NCBI GenBank assembly: GCA_043822385.1
Contig: JBDRBT010000006.1
Location: forward strand, 23,586-87,585
Direction of reading: 5' to 3'
DNA from: Candidatus Micrarchaeota archaeon
Lineage (GTDB): Archaea > Micrarchaeota > Micrarchaeia > Norongarragalinales > Norongarragalinaceae
Length of the DNA stretch: 64,000 nt
A program made the position numbers and the translations under genes. Position 1 is the stretch's first letter; the number at the start of each line of letters is the position of its first letter. Shown in pieces: positions 8,095-63,964 of this stretch. The notes below the pieces were generated by a model that saw nothing but the letters and a program-made list of their open reading frames with translations, searched no databases and was not told where the DNA came from.

Positions 8095-8167
8095 GGGGGA
8101 TTGGGGTAGCCTGGCATCCTGTCAGCTTTGGGAGTTGACGACCTGAGTTCGAATCTCAGATCCCCCA
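8095..8167 (+). tRNA. tRNA-Pro (anticodon TGG)
   Basis: Manual fold gives a 7-bp acceptor GGGGGAT/ATCCCCC, a D-arm, an anticodon stem TCAGC/GTTGA with loop TTTGGGA (anticodon TGG), a T-arm CTGAG-TTCGAAT-CTCAG and discriminator A. CCA is not encoded. Confidence 0.85.
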
Positions 8168-8737
8168 TTTTGTTTTTCTTCTTATTAACACCATTATTGT
8201 GAATGATGCGTTTAGTATTATTAGTGCTAGTGGGTACAAGTAAGTTGTTGGGGAATAACTTTCTAGTGCTGCGATTGCAAAAACGAATTTTAGGGAGTCT
8301 AGTGCGTAAGTGATTACTGTTTCTTCAAAGGGTTTAAAGTAAGCTTTCCGGAATGTTGGAGCGTAAGCTGTCGCGTCAACTAGAATGATTATTATTATCG
8401 CAGTTAACGGGTTGTTCGTAATTCCCCACAATGCTATTCCTAGGAAGGCTCCAAGCAAGCAAATCCAATCGAAGGTTTTTATGTCTTTTTCTCCCTTGAA
8501 GAAGGAAATGAAGGCTATAGTGAAGCAAACGATTGACGTAAATAAGGTAACCCATGCTCCTGCGCCGCCTCCTTTCGAGTATTGAGCTAGAAAACCTATT
8601 CCTGTTAATATACCCCAAATAAGCCAACTGAAAGCGTGGGGTTTAGTCTTGCCTTTGAATATGTCTAGAAAGTAAGGAATGTAGCCTATTACTCCGATTC
8701 CTACCGCGATTATTGATAAAACGAGTTTGTAGTCCAT
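8156..8737 (-). CDS. hypothetical polytopic membrane protein
   Basis: 193-aa ORF with about 6 hydrophobic helices. Its last 4 codons overlap the 3' end of tRNA-Pro on the opposite strand. Confidence 0.5.
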   Translation of the reverse strand: MDYKLVLSIIAVGIGVIGYIPYFLDIFKGKTKPHAFSWLIWGILTGIGFLAQYSKGGGAGAWVTLFTSIVCFTIAFISFFKGEKDIKTFDWICLLGAFLGIALWGITNNPLTAIIIIILVDATAYAPTFRKAYFKPFEETVITYALDSLKFVFAIAALESYSPTTYLYPLALIILNASFTIMVLIRRKTKWGI

Positions 8738-10271: not shown

Positions 10272-10431
10272 CCCGCTGTAGCTCAACTTGGCAGAGCACC
10301 TGACTGTAGAAAACTCTAAAAAAGTATTTTTGGGTTTGCAGTATTTGCTTCAAAAACTCCGAGTTTTTGTTGAAGAGTGCTTTTTCAAGCGCGAAATCAG
10401 GGTGTTGCCAGTTCAAATCTGGCCAGCGGGA
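10272..10431 (+). tRNA. tRNA-Tyr (anticodon GTA) with an ~86-nt intron after position 37 (intron about 10310..10395)
   Basis: Acceptor CCCGCTG/CAGCGGG with C1:G72, D-arm GCTC-AACTTGGCA-GAGC, anticodon stem CCTGA ... TCAGG interrupted after CTGTAG, T-arm GCCAG-TTCAAAT-CTGGC, discriminator A. Intron boundaries are uncertain by 1-2 nt because of the A-run. Confidence 0.75.
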
Positions 10432-10463
10432 TTTTTTTCCTTTTTTTTGTAAAGTGATCTTTT

Positions 10464-10886
10464 TTGAAATGGGAACGGCCGGGCTGGTTTGCGAAAAAAG
10501 AAAGCGTTTTAGGTTGTAAGGAAGTAAAAACGTGGGTTAAAGGAGATAAAGTCTTTTTTTTAGTTAACAATAGTGTTTTTCACCCGGATTTAGCTCTAGC
10601 TCGATCAAATCATTTTGTGACGACTATTGCGTATTCAAACCTGATTAGCTCTGTTGCTTCAACTAAGCGCTTCGAGCTTCAACGCAAGGAGCTTCGCAAG
10701 CTTATTGCAGAACATGAAGAAACGGCTTTGTCTTTAGTAAGAAAAGGTTTAGTTTTTAATAAAAAGTTTAATGTTGGTTCGAAAATTCTTGGTTTGTTCG
10801 AGAAAGCAGGTGGTTTGACTAACGCGCAAATCGAGTTTTCAGTTCCTTTAAATCACTTGATTCTTAGTTTTCCTAACGAACGATAA
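10464..10886 (+). CDS. hypothetical protein (no ATG; TTG or GTG start)
   Basis: 140-codon open frame in AT-rich DNA between tRNA-Tyr and the homing endonuclease gene. It has no in-frame ATG, so it may be a pseudogene or non-coding. Confidence 0.35.
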   Translation: MKWERPGWFAKKESVLGCKEVKTWVKGDKVFFLVNNSVFHPDLALARSNHFVTTIAYSNLISSVASTKRFELQRKELRKLIAEHEETALSLVRKGLVFNKKFNVGSKILGLFEKAGGLTNAQIEFSVPLNHLILSFPNER

Positions 10887-10935
10887 AAAGAACTTATTTT
10901 ACAATATGCGCTACTATTAATTTGCCTCACCGGAA

Positions 10936-11613
10936 TTGAACCCGCGAAAAACGTTTAAGTGGCTGCTTTTTTTGTTTATTGTGAACGAGCGGGATGTTTA
11001 TTGGTGGTTAGGCGTAACTCACGCTGATGGCTATTTTTATTTTAAGAATAACAAAGTAAGAGAGTTGCGTTTGAGAGTAAGTATTTGTTCGTTATCAATG
11101 CTTAAAAAATGGGGTAAAATTATTGATAAATTAACGGAAAAGAAGCACCGGTTGTTACTTGAAAAAATGTATGATCCACGCAGTGAGCGAAAATTCGACC
11201 AATACTTAGTTCGCGAGGGAAGTCAAGCAAGCCTTTCTTTGCTTAACTCCTTATTTTTGAAAAAGAAAATTAAACTTACTAGTATTGTCGTGCCTGATTG
11301 TTGTTATCATTCAAATGTTAGGAGCGGAGCTTATTTGGCTGGAATAATAGATGGGGACGGGTGTATTCAATTAAGAAAACACTATGTAGACGGTCATTTA
11401 GAGCGGTTATTGAAAATAACAACTAATAATAAAAAACACTTGGAACAAATACAATCCCTTTTGAGGAGTGTGGGTCTTTCTTCAGGGTATATTACAGATT
11501 ATGTGCGACACTTTGATTTATGGGTTTACTTGAATAAGAAAAGTATTGGTTGGTTCAAAAAATACGTAGTTCAAAACTTAGCGATAAAAAGAAAAGCCTT
11601 TAGGTTCAAATAA
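10936..11613 (+). CDS. free-standing LAGLIDADG homing endonuclease (double-motif, monomeric type)
   Basis: Two LAGLIDADG motifs are present: WWLGVTHADGYFYF (degenerate first motif) and YLAGIIDGDGCIQL (canonical second motif). The two motifs are the usual distance apart for a monomeric enzyme, and the 225-aa size is typical. Confidence 0.8.
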   Translation: MNPRKTFKWLLFLFIVNERDVYWWLGVTHADGYFYFKNNKVRELRLRVSICSLSMLKKWGKIIDKLTEKKHRLLLEKMYDPRSERKFDQYLVREGSQASLSLLNSLFLKKKIKLTSIVVPDCCYHSNVRSGAYLAGIIDGDGCIQLRKHYVDGHLERLLKITTNNKKHLEQIQSLLRSVGLSSGYITDYVRHFDLWVYLNKKSIGWFKKYVVQNLAIKRKAFRFK

Positions 11614-11631
11614 TGGATACAGCGCCTTGGT

Positions 11632-11736
11632 GCCTTGGTAGAAGTTATTACCTCTAAAGGAAATAACTGCCGAATGTAGTGGTTAGCACACGAGCTTGTC
11701 GAGCTTGTATCCCGGGTCCGAATCCCGGCCAAGGCG
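11632..11736 (+). tRNA. tRNA-Asp (anticodon GTC) candidate with a ~33-nt intron at a non-canonical position (about 11642..11674, between nt 10 and 11)
   Basis: 3' two-thirds fold cleanly: D-arm GTGT-AGTGGTTA-GCAC (after splicing), anticodon arm CGAGC-TTGTCGA-GCTTG, 4-nt variable loop, T-arm CCGGG-TCCGAAT-CCCGG, acceptor 3' CCAAGGC plus discriminator G. The only 5' acceptor complement (GCCTTGG, followed by U8 A9 G10) lies ~40 nt upstream, implying an intervening sequence. An extra copy of GCCTTGGT lies immediately 5' (11624..11631). Confidence 0.5.
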
Positions 11737-11782
11737 CTCTCTTTTTTTAACTTTTTTCCCCCTAAATTCATTAGTTGATTGA

Positions 11783-13877: not shown

Positions 13878-14596
13878 GGATTGTTTCTTTATCGCCTAGC
13901 AATACCGAGATTTTGTGTGCTTTAGGCTGTGAAAAAGAATTAGTTGGCGTAACTAGTTTGTGTGATTACCCGCGTGAATTGAGTGTTTCTAGGGTTAGTA
14001 GTTGGGTTGACCCTGACTTGCGGGAAGTAACTCGATTAAAACCTGACTTGGTTTTTACTAGTGGTTTTACTCAACAATCGCTTGCTGATTCCTTGAGGAA
14101 AAAAGGCTTGAGTGTTTTTCACGTTGACCCGCATTCTTTGAAAGACGTGTTGAGTTCATTCAAAGAAATTGGCGAAGTTGTTGGAAAAAGAAAAGAAGCT
14201 AATTCTTTAGTAAAGGAATTCAAGAAAAAAAGCGTTAGTAAGAAACTCGGCAAGCGCGTTTTGTGTTTGCAGTGGTTGAATCCCTTCATGGCGTCTGGTT
14301 ATTGGGTTCCGGACTTGCTTAAGAAAGCTGGTTGCAAGTCTTTATTGAAGAGTGGTGAAGATAGTCGTGTTTTTTCTCCTGAAGAATTGAAAAAATTTAA
14401 TCCTGAAGCTATTATAGTTAGTGTTTGCGGTGCTGGAGCAGCTGTTTCTGCGCAAAGCATTTTAGATAACGAGTTCTTCAAGAATACTGACGCAGTGAAG
14501 AAAAACAAGGTTTTTGTTATTGATGATGTTTTATTAAACCGGCCTGGTCCTAGATTAATAGAGTCAATTATTGAATTAGATCGCGCTTTAAAGTGA
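13874..14596 (+). CDS. BtuF/TroA-like cobalamin or siderophore binding protein (class III periplasmic-binding-protein fold) without a signal peptide
   Basis: The N-terminus begins directly with the BtuF-type motif RIVSLSPSNTEILCALG. The ~240-aa size matches that domain. No hydrophobic leader is present and no permease or ATPase gene is adjacent. Confidence 0.6.
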   Translation: MRIVSLSPSNTEILCALGCEKELVGVTSLCDYPRELSVSRVSSWVDPDLREVTRLKPDLVFTSGFTQQSLADSLRKKGLSVFHVDPHSLKDVLSSFKEIGEVVGKRKEANSLVKEFKKKSVSKKLGKRVLCLQWLNPFMASGYWVPDLLKKAGCKSLLKSGEDSRVFSPEELKKFNPEAIIVSVCGAGAAVSAQSILDNEFFKNTDAVKKNKVFVIDDVLLNRPGPRLIESIIELDRALK

Positions 14597-18868: not shown

Positions 18869-21800
18869 ATGACTATTATTGGCTCAATCAAGTTTTCGTT
18901 GTTTTCACCTAATGACATACGAAAAATGAGTACTACGCGTATTACTGTTCCAGATACTTACGATGAAGATGGTTACCCGATTGTTGGTGGTTTAGCGGAC
19001 CAGAGGCTTGGCGTGATTGATCCGGGTTTGAAATGCAAGTCTTGTGGTTCTAGAATGAAGGATTGCCCAGGACACTTTGGGCACATTGAGTTAGTTCGTC
19101 CAGTAGTTCACGTTGGTTTTGCTAAAACAGTTTACCAGTTATTGAAAGCTACTTGCAGGAAGTGCGGTAGGTTAATGGTTTTAGCTGACCTTGAAAAAAC
19201 TAAACAAAGCAATGAGTGTCCTCATTGTGGAGAAAAACAAAAGAAAGTAAAATTTGTTAAGCCAACTGGTTTTTTTGAAGACGACCGAAAAGTATTGCCT
19301 AATGAACTTCGCGAAAGGTTAGAGCGTATTCCTCAGGAAGACTTAGACGTATTGAAGGTTAAAATAAGGCCTGAGTGGGTGGTTTTAACGGTCTTGATTG
19401 TTCCTCCTGTTACTGTACGCCCTTCAATTACTCTTGAGACGGGAGAACGAAGTGAAGATGATTTAACTCACAAGCTAGTGGATATTTTGCGTATAAACCA
19501 ACGGCTTGAGGAAAACGTTGAAGCAGGGGCTCCTCAATTGATTATTGAAGACTTGTGGGAGTTATTGCAGTACCACGTTTCTACTTATTTTGATAATGAG
19601 ACTGCTGGTATTCCGCCCGCTAGACACAGGAGTGGTAGGCAGTTGAAGACTTTGTTCCAGAGGCTTAAAGGTAAGGAAGGCAGGTTTAGGTACAACTTGT
19701 CTGGAAAGAGAGTTAACTTTTCTGCGAGAACCGTTATTTCTCCTGACCCGACTCTTGGAATAAATGAACTTGGTGTTCCGGATGAAATTGCTTCTGAATT
19801 AACCGTGCCTATTAGCGTTACTGAATGGAATTTAGAAAACGTCAAGATTTTGCTTAAAGAAAAAATGGATAAAATTAGTTACGTTGTTAGGCCTGATGGA
19901 CGAAGAAAGAAACTGAGTGCATCTAATTTAGATGAAGTTTTAGGTGAATTAGCTCCCGGTTATTTTGTTGAACGACAGTTAATTGATGGAGATTTTGTTT
20001 TGTTTAACCGACAGCCTTCATTACACAGAGTTTCAATGATGTGCCACCGTGTTAGAGTTTTGCCTGGAAAAACCTTTAGGTTTAATGTTGCTGTTTGCAA
20101 TCCATATAACGCGGACTACGATGGGGATGAAATGAACATGCACGTTCCTCAAAACGAGGAAGCTCAAAGCGAAGCAGCTTTGTTAATGAGTGTTAAAGAA
20201 CAAATATTGTCTCCACGAAAAGGGTTTGCAATTATCGCGCCTAGTTTAGATCACATTACTGGCTTGTACTTATTGACTCAAGATGAAGTTTCTTGGTCTA
20301 GGGAAGAGGCTTGCACTTTACTTAATGAAGCAGGAATAACTAACGAAAACGTTAACAAAACTATTTCCGGTAAAGACTTGTTTTCAATGATTTTGCCTCC
20401 TGAATTAAATTTCGAGTGCATTAACAAAAGCAAGGAAAAAGTTGTCATAAAAAAAGGAAAACTTGTTAGTGGTCACATTGATGGGAAAGTAAGTACTATT
20501 CTAGTTGAAGAAATTTTCAAGAAACTTGGTTCTGAAGCGGCTTCTGATTATTTGGATCGAACAACCAAATTGTCTGTTGCAGTCACTACTTTCTACGGTT
20601 TTTCTTTGAGCATGGATGATTATAAAATAACTCCGAAAGCTAAAGAAGAAATAACTCAGTTGTATGAAGAAGGAAGAAAGAAAGTACGCGAGTTAATCAA
20701 GCTTTATCGTACTGGAAAATTAGAGAGAAAACCCGGTAAAACACTAAAGGAAACTCTAGAAGAGCAAGTAATGAGTGTAGTTGAATTAATTCGTTTTCAC
20801 TCTTGGTCTATAGTTAAAGACAACATCAAGCTAAATGCGGTTGTTATTGGTGGTAAAGAATTGAAGCAAAACTCTGCTTTGTTAATGGCTAGTTCAGGCG
20901 CGAGAGGTAAGCCAATAAACGTAGTGCAAATGACTTCCTTAGTTGGCCAGCAAGCAGTTAGAGGAAAGAGAATGACTGCAGGGTTTAGGAATAGAATTCT
21001 ACCTCACTTTTTGCGTGGTGACTTATCTGATTCTTCTCGTGGTTTTGTTAAGAATAATTACGTTGACGGCTTAACTGCCTTTGAGTATTTCTTCCACGCT
21101 GCTGGAGGAAGGGACTCGGTAGTAGACAAGGGCGTAAACCCTGCTAAAACAGGTTACATGCAGAGGCGTTTAATTAATGCTTTCCAAGACTTTTTCGTTG
21201 ATTCCGATTATAGCGTTAGGGATGCGGAAGGTAATTTGATTCAATTCCTTTACGGTGACGATGGAAATGACCCATGTACTAATGAGGCTATTGCTCCTGG
21301 AGAGCCAGTTGGAGTAGTTGCCGCACAATCTATTGGTGAACCTGGCACGCAAATGACTTTAAGAACGTTCCACTATGCTGGAGTAGCTTCTTTAGCACAA
21401 TTAGGGTTCACTCGATTGGTTGAATTAGTTGATGCTAGACGCACGCCTAAAAAACCAGTTATGGAAATTCACTTGCAAAAGAAATTCCAGAAAGATTACG
21501 ATGCAGTAAAGAAAATTGCTTCAAGCATTGAGCAAGTTACGCTTAGAGATATTGCTGAAATAAAGGAAGACTTCATCAAGAAAGTAGTAACCATTACTTT
21601 CAACAAGCAATTAATGCGTGAAAAAAATATTAAAGAAAAAGAAATAATTGAAAAGATAAAAGAATTAGCTGAATTTAGCGTCAAGGATGATGTTCTCGTG
21701 ATAAAACCAAAGAACGAGTCTTTGAAGAATATTCGCTTGCTTACCACTAAGATGGGTGACTTGCATTTGCAAGGCATTTCTGGAATAAGCCGAGCTATTA

Positions 21801-58887: not shown

Positions 58888-61318
58888 TTTTACTCCCTAT
58901 TATTTTGTCTTTGTACTTTAACAAAAAGTACGATAACGCGCTTATTATAACTAATCCAACTGCCCCGAAAAGAATGTAGTCTTCCTGCTTGTTTTTAGTT
59001 GCTGGAGGACTCACTTTTTTTGCTATGGCGTAAGCCGTTAAGTAATTTCCTGCGTCTAACGCGTTTTTAGCTTCCTTCAGAACACTATCGTCTAGAGTGA
59101 ATTGCTTTGTTTTTTCTTCAGCTAAGCTTACTTCTTTTTCTGCTTTAGACTTCATTGCGTCTATTAAGTTTTCTAACTCGCTTAGTTTTTTTCTTGAGTC
59201 TTCAAGGTTTTTTTCAAGGAGTTCCCGTGAGTAAGTAGTGTTTTTTCCTGATTCAATGCTGGTTTTTGCTTTATCCAACGGCTTAAGCAAAGTGCTTAAG
59301 TCTTTTAGAACCAAAGTAGTTTGCTGGTATTCTAAACTGTTTTTTTTCACTGAAGATTCTGCGTTAACTGCAGTTTCTAACTCTTTTTCCACGTCTTTTT
59401 TTTCTTCCAGGAAATCCATGTAATCGCTTAAAAAGTTATTCCAATTTTCTGGTTGTGGCGTTGGAATAAATATTATTGTAGTTTCAGTTGGTTCTAGTTC
59501 TTTTTTTGCTTCGCGTTTTTCCAGGATTATTGTTTTTTCTTCAAATTCTTGCATTCCGTTCAAAAGTAGCATTCCTTTATTTTCCGTTGCTTCCCCGCTT
59601 ATTTTTGTGTAATTGTTTGTCGCAATATTAGTTTCAATTAGTTCTTGAGTAGCTGCGGGCAAAGTGTTTGTGAAAGTTAGTATTCTATAAGAAAGTTTTT
59701 CACTGCCGGCGTCAATTTCTTTTTCTTCCTCTATTGTTTTTAGAGCTGTTGAAATCAGCGCTTTTTTGTTTTCTTTAATGTAGTCACTAGTTTTCTTCAG
59801 GTTTTCAGTTATTGTTTCTAGTTCGCTTATGCTTTTTACTTCAATTCTCCCAGAAAAAGTTTCTAACGCAGTTTTCAAGTAATCAGCTTGTTTTTCCGGC
59901 AAGTATTTTTGGAACGCACTCAATTCCATAGCTAGGTTTGCGGCCCAACCGTATTCCTGAATTAATTTGTTTTGAATTCCTTCTTCTACGAAACCAACTT
60001 GTTTTAGCAAGTATTCTTGTTCCTTAGAATCTGCTTTTTTTAGCGCGTTGATTACTTCTTCAAGTATTTTTTCTTCTTCACTGAACCCGGCTTTGTTTTT
60101 TATTTCTTTAAGTAAGTCTTCTGTTTTTGCTTCAGTTTTTATTTTAATGAAGTCATCTGTGTTAATTTCGTTCAATACTTTTTCTAATTCCAGTGCGTTT
60201 TGGTACTTTATTTTTATTCTGTTTCCAATTGTTCCAACTGCTTTTTTAGGCGTGAATAAATCCTTACTCGCAATGCTTGTGAAAGACGTAGCGGCTAGTT
60301 TTTTATTTACTTCTTCTTTGAGTTTGTTCGTTTTTTCTTCTAGAAACGCTTCTATTTCTCTAGCTTCTTTTTCTAGTGTTTCGGATTTTTCAGTGCTTTC
60401 TTCCGCATGGTTTAACGCGTTAAATAACGCGTTATTGCTTTCTCCTAGAAACCCTTTTTCTCTTTTTTTTAGTAAGTCTTCAGCGTTTTTTAATTCGTTT
60501 TCTGCTTGGGAAAGAAGTTCTTGTGCTTCCAGCGAGTATTCTTGAGAGTAAAACGTGTTGCTTGATGAACTTATTTGGTTGGATTCGTCTCGCAAATCGT
60601 AATTGCTTGCATCAAAAATGTTGTTTGCCTCGTTTTTCCTGATTTTTGCTTTAGCTTGCTTTATGTTTTCAGTTGTTTTTTTTCTTAATTCGTTGTTTTC
60701 TTCAAGTAGTTTTTGCATTGCTAACTCTAATTTTTCGTAAACTGTTTTTTGGCGTTTTATTGCGGAATCTTTTTCGAATACTTTATTTATGACTGCTTGA
60801 TACGGCGTCCAAAAATCAGTCAGTAACTCATTTAACTCGAGAATTCTTTCAGTTATGCTTCCTTTTGCTTTCGTTTTTTTAAGCAAGTTATTTTTTTCCG
60901 AGTTTAATTCGCTTATTGTTCCTGAAGCTAGTCCTGGGTTTTCTTGAGAGAATGCTTTTTCGAGTTCATTGCTTTTTTCGTCTATTAGTTCGTTTCCTTT
61001 TTTTACTGCTTCCAAAGCTTTATTCATTGCATTAAAGAGTTTTTCGTTGCAAGCCATTTGTTGCGTGATTATTCCTACTGGATCAATTTTTTTAGGTATT
61101 TCTTCCTGGGCTTTTCTTGCTTCTTCCCGTGCTTCGCGCATTAAGTCTATGACTTGTTTAAACTCGGTGGTGGAAGCTAGTTCTGGGTGTATTTCGGGTT
61201 GGCTAGGCATGCAAGGGTATAACGGGAAGTATTTTTGTCCTTCGATTAAGTAATTAAATTCGCTTAAGAACGCGCTTGTTATGGTTGTTAGTAGTAAAAG
61301 AAAAATTATTTTTTTCAT
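58856..61318 (-). CDS. large secreted, membrane-anchored coiled-coil surface protein (hypothetical)
   Basis: Signal peptide MKKIIFLLLLTTITSAF. About 700 aa of E/K/L/N-rich heptad-like sequence. C-terminal TM ILFGAVGLVIISALSYFLL plus a short tail. Same architecture as the 8791..10236 product. Confidence 0.6.
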   Translation of the reverse strand: MKKIIFLLLLTTITSAFLSEFNYLIEGQKYFPLYPCMPSQPEIHPELASTTEFKQVIDLMREAREEARKAQEEIPKKIDPVGIITQQMACNEKLFNAMNKALEAVKKGNELIDEKSNELEKAFSQENPGLASGTISELNSEKNNLLKKTKAKGSITERILELNELLTDFWTPYQAVINKVFEKDSAIKRQKTVYEKLELAMQKLLEENNELRKKTTENIKQAKAKIRKNEANNIFDASNYDLRDESNQISSSSNTFYSQEYSLEAQELLSQAENELKNAEDLLKKREKGFLGESNNALFNALNHAEESTEKSETLEKEAREIEAFLEEKTNKLKEEVNKKLAATSFTSIASKDLFTPKKAVGTIGNRIKIKYQNALELEKVLNEINTDDFIKIKTEAKTEDLLKEIKNKAGFSEEEKILEEVINALKKADSKEQEYLLKQVGFVEEGIQNKLIQEYGWAANLAMELSAFQKYLPEKQADYLKTALETFSGRIEVKSISELETITENLKKTSDYIKENKKALISTALKTIEEEKEIDAGSEKLSYRILTFTNTLPAATQELIETNIATNNYTKISGEATENKGMLLLNGMQEFEEKTIILEKREAKKELEPTETTIIFIPTPQPENWNNFLSDYMDFLEEKKDVEKELETAVNAESSVKKNSLEYQQTTLVLKDLSTLLKPLDKAKTSIESGKNTTYSRELLEKNLEDSRKKLSELENLIDAMKSKAEKEVSLAEEKTKQFTLDDSVLKEAKNALDAGNYLTAYAIAKKVSPPATKNKQEDYILFGAVGLVIISALSYFLLKYKDKIIGSKNGHSFSEELV

Positions 61319-63133: not shown

Positions 63134-63964
63134 ATGTCGAAAAAAAGAGGACAACAAATGCCTGCAGGCGGCTCATTTTTTGAGAGCGCTATCCCGCTGA
63201 TTTTAATCGTAGTACTTGGTTTGTTTATTGCAGCTAGGTTTGGTTACTTGGATTTAAGCGGCGTGCCTTTAATTGGTTCGTTAGTGCCTAGTTCAAGCGT
63301 GGATATAGCAGTTATTGGAAACCCGTCTCAAGTATTAGTTAATGAATTACGCAGCAGAGACGCAACTCTTGCTGGAATAAAATACATGGGTCATTTACCT
63401 CAAGAAGCGGTAGTGGGCTCTGCTTTAGATAAGTACGATTTAATTATTCTGCAAGGAGAAGTTTACTGTGACCGAACTGCACGTGAAGCAATTCGCAATG
63501 CAGTGCAAGGCGGAACGAAACTACTAGTAGTTGGTAATGCTTGCACTCGAGTTCACAACGACAAGACGGTTTACGGCTGGGATTTTGTACTAAAAGATGT
63601 TATTCCAGTAAAGCTTTCTAACATTCAAGCTCATGAACCAGTTGGTCCAGAATCAATTACTGTAAACGGAAAACTAACTATCGTTTCTCAAGACCACCAA
63701 ATGTTCATGGGAATCTTGAATCCTAGGTTTTCTGGAACTGTAACCAGTGTTTACCCAGCAGCTAACGCAGACATTCTAGCGTTAGTAAGCGAGTATGGTT
63801 CAAGTCCTGTAGGACCATCTGAATTCGCTATTATGGAAAGCAAGGGTTTACTGAGCGGAAAGACAATGTACTTTGCTTTTGATCCAGGTACCATGATTGC
63901 TGAAGGCAATGGCGGAAGAAACATGTTTATTGCTTCCTTGTTGTACTTGAATGGAAAGAAGTAA
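63134..63964 (+). CDS. N-terminally membrane-anchored hypothetical protein (paralog 2)
   Basis: One N-terminal TM (AIPLILIVVLGLFIAA) followed by a ~250-aa ectodomain with IAVIGNPSQ and LLVVGNACT (Rossmann/ThuA-like beta-alpha units). Confidence 0.5.
   Translation: MSKKRGQQMPAGGSFFESAIPLILIVVLGLFIAARFGYLDLSGVPLIGSLVPSSSVDIAVIGNPSQVLVNELRSRDATLAGIKYMGHLPQEAVVGSALDKYDLIILQGEVYCDRTAREAIRNAVQGGTKLLVVGNACTRVHNDKTVYGWDFVLKDVIPVKLSNIQAHEPVGPESITVNGKLTIVSQDHQMFMGILNPRFSGTVTSVYPAANADILALVSEYGSSPVGPSEFAIMESKGLLSGKTMYFAFDPGTMIAEGNGGRNMFIASLLYLNGKK

Follow-up and report, generated by a model that had tools for sequence, protein, structure and literature searches.

Comparison with known disrupted tRNA genes

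tRNA introns with relaxed bulge-helix-bulge (BHB) motifs, termed HBh' and hBH, are described (PMC3239211; PMC4090602) at positions such as 3/4, 20/21 and 25/26 in the Thermoproteales and at position 59/60 of tRNA-Cys in ARMAN-2, the latter being cut by the epsilon2 EndA endonuclease. In ARMAN-2 (Micrarchaeum), 56% of the tRNA genes are disrupted, and the epsilon2 endonuclease cuts relaxed BHB motifs in vitro (PMC3239211). Here we describe a tRNA-Asp(GTC) gene in a 64-kb stretch of a Candidatus Micrarchaeota contig (JBDRBT010000006.1), hereafter the window, in which 33 nucleotides (nt) separate positions 10 and 11 and a gene for a LAGLIDADG protein lies directly upstream. We consider it probable that the gene yields a functional tRNA-Asp(GUC) of this Micrarchaeota (DPANN) lineage from a precursor with a protein-spliced BHB intron at 10/11, and that a surrogate strand in the leader frees exon 1. 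On the evidence of motif geometry and sequence comparison, the assignment of the insert as a putative non-canonical archaeal BHB intron is strongly supported.

The candidate intron resembles the described non-canonical BHB introns in several respects. It is short and contains no open reading frame (ORF), its 4-bp central helix is made of exon and intron bases, and its predicted cuts fall in 3-nt bulges, one site being strict and the other relaxed. Its host phylum, the Micrarchaeota, is known for its many disrupted tRNA genes and for an endonuclease of broad specificity (PMC3239211; PMC4090602). Position 10/11 is not among the positions named in the available text of the review (PMC4090602). 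Unlike the known non-canonical introns, the one in the window borrows the acceptor-stem bases 5-8, so that its motif competes directly with the acceptor stem, and it is accompanied by a conserved leader strand able to take the 3' acceptor strand.

Split and permuted tRNAs, such as those of Nanoarchaeum equitans, Caldivirga and Cyanidioschyzon, provide a second parallel, in that a sequence outside the tRNA pairs within the precursor and enables a splicing-competent structure (PMC4090602; PMC4033280). In those tRNAs, however, the leader-trailer helix belongs to the BHB motif and both are removed by the endonuclease, whereas the leader of the window gene pairs with the mature 3' acceptor strand. 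Moreover, the window gene is contiguous and collinear, and no BHB motif can be drawn at its boundary between leader and exon 1.

The arrangement also recalls the collaborative homing of F-CphI and the psbA intron, where a free-standing endonuclease gene likewise stands beside a gene with an ORF-less intron and endonuclease-less relatives are likewise intronless (PMC6083498). The F-CphI case involves a group I intron, a protein-coding gene, an Endo VII enzyme and a phage, whereas the window has a BHB intron, a tRNA gene, a LAGLIDADG protein of putative cleavage specificity and a cellular archaeon. With I-DmoI and I-Tsp061I of rRNA BHB introns, the window protein shares the two-domain monomeric fold, a length of about 200 amino acids (aa), the archaeal host and the association with a BHB intron, but its gene lies upstream of both intron and exon 1, and the interrupted gene encodes a tRNA, not an rRNA. 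By itself, the intron adds one more member to a known class; what sets the locus apart is its surrogate strand and a strictly linked LAGLIDADG gene.

A predicted BHB motif at the 10/11 junction

The preliminary description of this DNA had proposed a tRNA-Asp(GTC) with an intron after position 10, and its layout of exon 1, insert and positions 11-73 proved correct throughout (Table 1). The locus reads ...cagcGCCTTGGT GCCTTGGTAG aagttattacctctaaaggaaataactgccgaa TGTAGTGGTTAGCACACGAGCTTGTCGAGCTTGTATCCCGGGTCCGAATCCCGGCCAAGGCG ctctcttttttt. Within exon 2, the anticodon GTC occupies 11698-11700, the acceptor 3' strand CCAAGGC 11729-11735 and the discriminator G 11736; the seven-T run in the trailer is likely an archaeal terminator. 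When the exons are joined computationally, the product has a 7-bp acceptor stem, the pairs G10-C25, U11-A24, G12-C23 and U13-G22, and the anticodon GUC. The predicted junction after splicing is GCCUUGGUAG followed by UGUAGUGG, and the spliced product, GCCTTGGTAG joined to TGTAGTGGTTAGCAC, is the same as the intronless tRNA-Asp of the Micrarchaeota metagenome-assembled genome (MAG) L001 over positions 1-25.

In the canonical case, the anticodon bases 34 and 35 lie in the central helix (PMC4090602). The rule that we used places, at each splice site, four helix bases, two bulge bases, the cut and one bulge base, and it was validated on the canonical 37/38 intron, a strict BHB, of the tRNA-Asp in locus L019. 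The intron of the window tRNA-Tyr had been tried as the positive control and was replaced by this one, as its BHB motif is not obvious. Applied to the locus, the rule predicts cuts exactly between 11641 and 11642 and between 11674 and 11675, the junctions that the tRNA requires. A relaxed BHB fold, which had been put forward as the check on the intron, therefore fits both junctions exactly. The 7-bp hairpin AGTTATT/AATAACT, already noted in the insert, was found as well; it begins at the base right after the 5' bulge and runs for seven consecutive pairs.

The motif is relaxed (HBh'-like), since the 3' bulge is part of a 2x3 internal loop opposite the unpaired C3 and U4. An outer helix of C2-G12, G1.U13 and U(-1)-A14 closes the 3' site and is 87.5% paired across the related loci described below. 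The central helix and the intron hairpin are both present in the minimum free energy (MFE) fold of 11615-11745 (-51.2 kcal/mol, z = -4.3). Over the whole window, a 4-bp helix with 3-nt bulges and seven or more stacked intron pairs has a chance frequency of approximately 6e-5 per specific combination of site and length. Given that the BHB geometry falls exactly on the required junction, and that the architecture recurs with covariation in 10 other loci, the arrangement exceeds chance.

The upstream copy of the 5' end at 11624-11631 was considered as exon 1 of a larger intron and rejected, because the alternative junctions place A10 opposite C25 or give no BHB helix. In relatives, the corresponding upstream strand makes a poor acceptor strand (GTTTTGA in L003, GCTTTGG in L013, interrupted in L017), whereas the proximal copy matches the intronless orthologues.

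Table 1. Features of the interrupted tRNA-Asp locus (positions in the window)
Feature	Position	Strand	Remarks
LAGLIDADG gene, 210 aa, two-domain monomer type, free-standing	10981..11613	+	ends 18 nt before exon 1
Leader surrogate acceptor strand, GCGCCTTGG	11622..11630	+	predicted 9 bp with 11729-11737; covers most of the upstream copy 11624-11631
Exon 1, tRNA-Asp positions 1-10, GCCTTGGTAG	11632..11641	+	direct reading; intronless orthologues have GCCTTGGTAG then TGTAGTGGTTAGCA
Central-helix 5' strand, U5 G6 G7 U8	11636..11639	+	predicted to pair with 11669-11672 (GCCG)
5' splice-site bulge, A9 G10/A, strict 3 nt	11640..11642	+	cut predicted after 11641
Predicted 33-nt BHB-type intron at 10/11	11642..11674	+	hairpin AGTTATT (11643-11649)/AATAACT (11662-11668), inner CCT/AGG stem
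Central-helix 3' strand, GCCG, intron positions -6 to -3	11669..11672	+	geometry rule, covariation
3' splice-site bulge, A A/U11	11673..11675	+	cut predicted after 11674; 2x3 internal loop
Exon 2, tRNA-Asp positions 11-73	11675..11736	+	Rfam tRNA 28.9 bits, model positions 9-63
3' trailer	11737..11748	+	C11737 pairs with leader G11622; seven-T run 11742-11748

Covariation in related tRNA-Asp loci

When one genome per species was scanned with an exon-2 pattern, ten loci were found, every one in a MAG of Micrarchaeota or Marsarchaeota. Nine are uninterrupted and read GCC(T/C)NGGT(A/G)G followed directly by TGTAGTGGTTAGCA. The tenth, L003, is interrupted at 10/11 (GCCTTGATAG, then 36 nt, then TGTAGTGG) and shares with the window the gene order of a DUF2666-like gene, tRNA-Pro, a 500-aa coiled-coil gene, an intron-bearing tRNA-Tyr, the LAGLIDADG gene and tRNA-Asp. 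Nine further loci were reached via homologues of the LAGLIDADG protein (L013, L017, L018, L019, L020, L022, L023, L024 and L026), and all nine have the 10/11 insert, some with additional introns. The 10/11 intron thus occurs in the window and ten other loci (L003, L013, L017-L020, L022-L024 and L026). A metagenome scan with the exon-2 pattern found only two intronless genes and no intron-bearing relatives.

Ten of the 10/11-intron loci were aligned in fixed-offset segments under a 23-pair model. With this model, 90.5% of the cells are paired, as compared to 27-43% with slid partners, and 11 of the 23 pairs have changed in both partners. The alignment scores 0.399 for covariation; shuffled alignments score 0.168, and none of 500 shuffles reaches the observed value. 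The columns of the central helix and the hairpin were set by their offset from the junctions and are unbiased. In the central helix, two of the four pairs covary, 5:-3 (UG/AU/UA) and 7:-5 (GC/AU), while the intron hairpin shows both-sided changes across orthologues in all six counted pairs. The 3-nt 5' bulge between the 4-bp helix and the intron hairpin is kept in all 11 loci.

The exchange of G7-C for A7-U in the central helix coincides with the 7:66 change of the acceptor stem in two clades. In L003, the change of G7 to A is matched both by its acceptor partner (C66 to T) and by the intron strand (GCCG to GTCG). Between the exons of the window and L003, the stem differences consist of two compensatory pairs, 7:66 and 27:43, which argues for selection on the gene as a tRNA and against a pseudogene. 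The earlier assignment as tRNA-Asp(GTC) with a non-canonical 10/11 intron is backed by the geometry, by the match to intronless orthologues and by these compensatory substitutions.

Up to three introns per tRNA-Asp are seen in the relatives. The gene of L019 (3632-3837) is interrupted at 10/11, at 37/38 and in the T-loop. An insert of about 37 nt in the T-loop, near positions 58-60, recurs in the tRNA-Asp genes of L020, L021 and L022, and those of L021 and L026 have a D-loop intron bordered by a GGCTTA repeat.

Pairing potential between the leader and the 3' acceptor strand

The sequence GCCTTGGT is present twice in tandem, at 11624-11631 and 11632-11639, and AG at 11640-11641 then completes positions 1-10. 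The preliminary description had recognized this second upstream copy together with two alternative acceptor pairings, and both pairings are indeed possible. The leader strand GCGCCTTGG is complementary to CCAAGGCGC (11729-37), a stretch made up of the 3' acceptor strand plus discriminator and first trailer base, and this pairing is present in the MFE fold. The predicted energy of the leader duplex is -19.6 kcal/mol versus -11.0 kcal/mol for the true acceptor stem, and none of 200 shuffled leaders equals it.

The same relation was found in most relatives with the intron. In seven of the nine 10/11-intron loci with a complete 3' end, the duplex between leader and 3' strand reaches -17.8 to -20.5 kcal/mol (0/200 shuffles), the true acceptor stems of these loci being weaker at -9.6 to -13.4 kcal/mol. 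In nine intronless loci, the leader duplex amounts to -3.8 to -10.7 kcal/mol; eight of these values lie in the shuffle range and that of L001 is borderline (7/200). L021, which has the LAGLIDADG gene and a D-loop intron, gives -7.8 kcal/mol, with 71 of 200 shuffles as low. It serves as a natural control, since the BHB motif of a D-loop intron needs no acceptor bases. The leader strand was found in none of ten genes without a 10/11 intron (nine intronless and L021).

The sequence of the leader strand varies among the loci. In L003, GAGAGTGTTTTGA faces TCAAGGCGCTCTC with 13 pairs, three of which are G.U; in L013, GGCGCTTTGG faces CCAAGGCGCC; and in L017, GGGAGC-A-CTTGG faces CCAAG-GC-GCTCCC. The leader strand lies 0-3 nt from G1 in this clade. 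In the second clade, it is GCGCCCAG(G), located 25-27 nt upstream of exon 1 and behind a conserved 7-bp hairpin. Across loci, the changes in the leader strand are wobble-preserving and compensatory.

The proposal that the duplication is a footprint of an endonuclease-associated insertion is not supported, as relatives with the same gene and intron have a diverged, still complementary leader and no exact duplication. The 8-nt repeat is tandem with nothing between the copies, and the marks of a pseudogene or an integration footprint were not found. Given that the complementarity reaches into the trailer, which could not have been copied from exon 1, and that C-to-T changes keep G.U pairs, the leader strand appears to be a selected RNA helix and no DNA repair scar.

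In the second clade (L018-L020, L022, L024 and L026), the 7-bp hairpin G(Y)(R)TCTG-NNNN-CAGATGC stands between the leader strand and exon 1, in the last ~60 nt of the LAGLIDADG ORF, and one-sided changes convert its wobble pairs to Watson-Crick pairs. This hairpin was considered as an intron between two GCCCAG copies and rejected, because the 4-bp helix needed fails to form in a hand check. L023 has a second copy of the 3' acceptor strand, CCAAGGCGC, 13 nt past the tRNA end (1178-1200), and an 8-bp hairpin just before exon 1; this arrangement could be an assembly artefact of this 1.3-kb contig.

Folding predictions depend on the leader. For an RNA starting at G1 or at -3, each of the nine loci gives a probability of 1.00 for the acceptor stem and 0.00 for the central helix. 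Inclusion of 60 nt of leader and 8 nt of trailer displaces exon 1 from the 3' strand, and the central helix rises to 0.92-0.99 in the window, 0.78-0.94 in L003, 0.6 in L013, 0.7 in L020 and 0.25 in L017. When the RNA is spliced in silico and the trailer is kept, the leader helix still prevails (true acceptor stem 0.00-0.04), and upon additional 3' trimming the true acceptor stem rises to 0.3-0.6.

Proposed maturation of the precursor

In the proposed precursor, the central 4-bp helix would consist of exon-1 bases 5-8 paired with intron positions -6 to -3. The 5' bulge would comprise A9, G10 and the first intron base, with the 7-bp intron hairpin stacked directly on it, while A, A and U11 would place the 3' site within the relaxed internal loop. 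The leader strand GCGCCUUGG, that is, the duplicated copy plus two bases, would outcompete exon 1 for the region from the 3' acceptor strand through the discriminator to the first trailer base. The gene would carry this surrogate strand because exon 1 is otherwise trapped in the acceptor stem. Exon 1, thus freed, could enter the BHB motif, and the RNase P site would be masked until splicing is done.

The archaeal splicing endonuclease, of the broad-specificity epsilon2 type in Micrarchaeota, would then cut after 11641 and 11674, and an RNA ligase would join the exons into a normal 72-nt tRNA. The likely order of events would be the holding of the 3' strand by the leader, the action of endonuclease and ligase, 3' trimming, strand exchange and finally leader removal; we infer that the leader itself is transcribed. 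A protein of 393 aa with a tRNA_int_endo domain is encoded on the contig of L018. As for leader removal, a second BHB motif, or one formed by leader and trailer, was rejected upon hand analysis, as there is no valid geometry at -1/+1 or 73/74 and the spacing varies from 0 to 27 nt.

A BHB motif that borrows acceptor-stem bases poses a folding conflict, to which a conserved cis-acting leader decoy would be a new solution. Such a decoy would exemplify an RNA structure confined to the precursor that sets the order of processing steps. We found no description of a leader decoy strand in open-access papers.

Several observations weigh against this scheme. The 3' site is no clean 3-nt bulge, and the outer helix comprises just 2-5 bp across the 2x3 loop. 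L023 has the intron but no leader strand, and the leader strand of L019 is weak. Inclusion of the leader leaves the central helix at a predicted probability of ~0 in L018, L022, L019 and L023, where the helices are weaker or, in L023, a leader strand is absent. The covariation statistics of the leader helix are biased, since the leader 9-mers were picked by complementarity. In the window, L003 and L013, AT-rich boxes resembling TATA elements can be read by eye 19-25 nt upstream of exon 1. Should they act as promoters, transcripts would begin near G1 and the leader strand would stay outside the RNA. No gene for a splicing endonuclease was matched among the ten window ORFs tested. Finally, the T-loop UCCGAAU has C at position 55 (11718) and not the near-universal U, the pseudouridine-55 site. 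This C55 is common to the window and L003, while T occurs there in every other tRNA-Asp gene seen, with or without the intron, and it is unusual for a working tRNA.

Linkage of the LAGLIDADG gene to the intron

The ORF of the LAGLIDADG gene, if delimited mechanically, begins further upstream, with a TTG at 10936. The 210-aa protein matches Pfam LAGLIDADG_3 (E = 2.4e-8) and has an identical counterpart at NCBI, entitled 'MAG: LAGLIDADG family homing endonuclease [Candidatus Micrarchaeota archaeon]'. It belongs to a family of 13 proteins among 5.8 billion clusters. Motif 1 reads WWLGV(T/L)H(A/T)D(G/C)Y, with the Asp conserved, and motif 2, AYLAGIIDGDGCIQ, is invariant in 13 sequences. The AlphaFold2 model (pLDDT 94, pTM 0.90) comprises two alpha-beta-beta-alpha-beta-beta-alpha domains, for which Foldseek returned I-AniI, the bI3 maturase, I-Tsp061I, PI-PfuI and I-DmoI (E = 4e-8 to 6e-6). 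At the sequence level, only the motif resembles solved structures (E = 0.09).

The ORF is not encoded inside an intron or intein, being upstream of exon 1 in the window and overlapping the tRNA gene from the 5' side in the second clade. There, the frame first crosses the leader strand and the hairpin and then exon 1 and the intron, so that the protein and the pre-tRNA are necessarily on one transcript. Since the stop codon lies inside the tRNA gene, 5' tRNA processing would strip it from the mRNA.

At 12 of 12 loci of the close family (40-55% identity), an interrupted tRNA-Asp either begins 10-20 nt after the end of the gene or is overlapped by it, and none of 11 intronless tRNA-Asp loci has the gene; the samples behind both counts are phylogenetically non-independent. 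The interruptions at the close-family loci all fall within the first ~20 nt of tRNA-Asp, eleven at 10/11 and one in the D-loop. We found no open-access paper that links LAGLIDADG genes to BHB tRNA introns.

This linkage suggests collaborative homing, a tentative explanation for which the cyanophage F-CphI/psbA intron offers a precedent (PMC6083498). The free-standing LAGLIDADG enzyme would cut intronless tRNA-Asp at or near 10/11 (putative target GCCTTGGTAGTGTAGTGGTTAGC), the BHB intron would shield the carrier, and repair of the cut allele would copy the endonuclease gene, leader, exon 1 and intron together. Homing of this kind would complement the splicing explanation, in that it would account for the presence of the intron and for its closeness to the 5' end. 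The acidic residues kept in both motifs, the invariance of motif 2 and the confident two-domain nuclease fold fit this explanation, and the frameshift in the L022 copy is expected in the life cycle of a homing endonuclease. The pair of gene and intron is retained across differing genomic contexts. The endonucleases of the window and L013 are 55% identical, whereas the flanking proteins are 27% and 41% identical. The gene lies between tRNA-Tyr and tRNA-Asp in the window and L003, whereas 37 nt separate the two tRNAs in L010, which is without the gene.

However, the same division into two clades is seen in the protein tree, in the tRNA acceptor type and in the layout of the leader. The LAGLIDADG proteins of the window and L003 (54% identity) are as diverged as their neighbours (53%), which argues against a recent insertion. 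Given the concordant clades and the equal divergence, plain vertical co-inheritance explains the association, and the overall pattern is equally compatible with vertical co-inheritance and collaborative homing. Furthermore, filled and empty alleles were never found in close relatives of one another, and the left homology arm needed for copying the gene is unconserved between the clades. The spacers between tRNA-Tyr and tRNA-Asp in L005 and L007 hold unrelated membrane-protein ORFs and no endonuclease remnants. The most distant member of the family, P0013 (L025 282-1034, 29% identity), also speaks against homing, as it overlaps an uninterrupted tRNA-His(GTG) (936-1008) on the opposite strand; adjacency to tRNA genes may be more widespread in its branch of LAGLIDADG genes.

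For the gain and movement of archaeal BHB tRNA introns, transposition and integration models exist with no enzyme identified (PMC3239211). The strict link of a LAGLIDADG gene to one tRNA intron makes the question of intron gain directly testable, with one protein and one 25-bp DNA. If true, collaborative homing would be the first concrete DNA-level mechanism for the gain and spread of archaeal protein-spliced tRNA introns. The locus as a whole might then be a composite element not previously described, in which a LAGLIDADG endonuclease targeting the D-arm region of intronless tRNA-Asp is shielded by the 10/11 BHB intron and accompanied by a co-evolving leader surrogate acceptor strand that makes the intron spliceable; we regard this combination as unlikely.

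A domesticated, maturase-like role of the LAGLIDADG protein seems improbable. The protein would bind the pre-tRNA-Asp, or the co-transcript of mRNA and pre-tRNA, and would aid the splicing fold or regulate tRNA-Asp output, so that the linkage of gene and tRNA would be functional and not selfish. The gene has remained intact over a deep divergence in which its neighbours drop to 27-41% identity, and the shared transcript implied by the second-clade ORF would suit such a role. Among the best structural matches are I-AniI, which is both endonuclease and maturase, and the bI3 maturase, but this similarity follows from the common LAGLIDADG fold and is not evidence of function. BHB introns are not known to require maturases. 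Both catalytic Asp residues are kept, which is unexpected in a pure RNA chaperone, and L022 retains its intron despite the frameshifted gene.

Detection of tRNA-Asp genes

Standard detectors, among them ARAGORN, which had been named as a check, miss the gene. At default settings, ARAGORN makes no call at the tRNA-Asp locus and reports only Pro, His and Gln in the window, whereas in intron mode it calls a 'tRNA-Tyr' at 11624-11737, an artefact of forcing an intron to the canonical position. Rfam at the gathering threshold reports Pro, His, Gln and the intron-bearing tRNA at 10272-10431. At a permissive threshold, the Rfam tRNA model matches 11673-11728 with a score just short of the cut-off of 29 (Table 1). 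Since this tRNA-Asp is probably essential and yet overlooked by standard annotation, the genome would appear to be tRNA-Asp-less, which bears on completeness estimates of DPANN genomes and on the design of tRNA finders.

In the 64-kb window, ARAGORN and Rfam found no further tRNA-Asp gene. In the L003 genome, the interrupted gene is the sole match to the tRNA-Asp pattern. A decayed tRNA gene, with the insert and the 8-nt repeat as slippage or repair scars and a second intact tRNA-Asp elsewhere doing the work, would agree with the silence of the standard detectors, with C in place of the near-universal U55 and with the 64 kb to which the inspectable part of the genome amounts, but it is very improbable in view of an insert that 11 loci have at the identical position and whose helices show compensatory changes, the compensatory stem substitutions between the window and L003, leader strands that have diverged in relatives and are still complementary, the lack of another pattern match in the L003 genome, and the occurrence of C55 in L003, which marks it as inherited and as no recent lesion.

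Other features of the neighbourhood

The window tRNA-Tyr(GTA) at 10272-10431 (Rfam 49.6 bits) has an insert of ~86-89 nt near the canonical position, and its counterpart in L003 has a 151-nt insert. No clean BHB motif for a single intron can be drawn in the window gene, and the anticodon bases pair with GCAG ~30 nt into the insert. This suggests that the insert consists of two adjacent or nested introns.

In the window, ~550 nt (10433-10980) separate tRNA-Tyr from the LAGLIDADG gene and include a 140-aa ORF (10464-10886) without a Pfam match. Given that the LAGLIDADG gene of L003 lies within ~70 nt of tRNA-Tyr, this segment would be an extra insertion in the window lineage.

With a lowered threshold and introns allowed, ARAGORN additionally reports a tRNA-Glu(TTC) at 59310-59512 (112-nt intron), a tRNA-Ala(CGC) at 63718-63819 (13-nt intron) and, less strongly, two further candidates (13911-14295 and 19162-19421). 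None of these four places has a match in Rfam at E up to 0.5.

A membrane protein is encoded beside tRNA-Pro on the minus strand (8156-8737); it starts MDYKLVLSIIAV...KTKPHAFSWLIW and has a clear homologue in the spacer between tRNA-Tyr and tRNA-Asp of L005, implying that the neighbourhood of the tRNA cluster has been rearranged between Micrarchaeota lineages.

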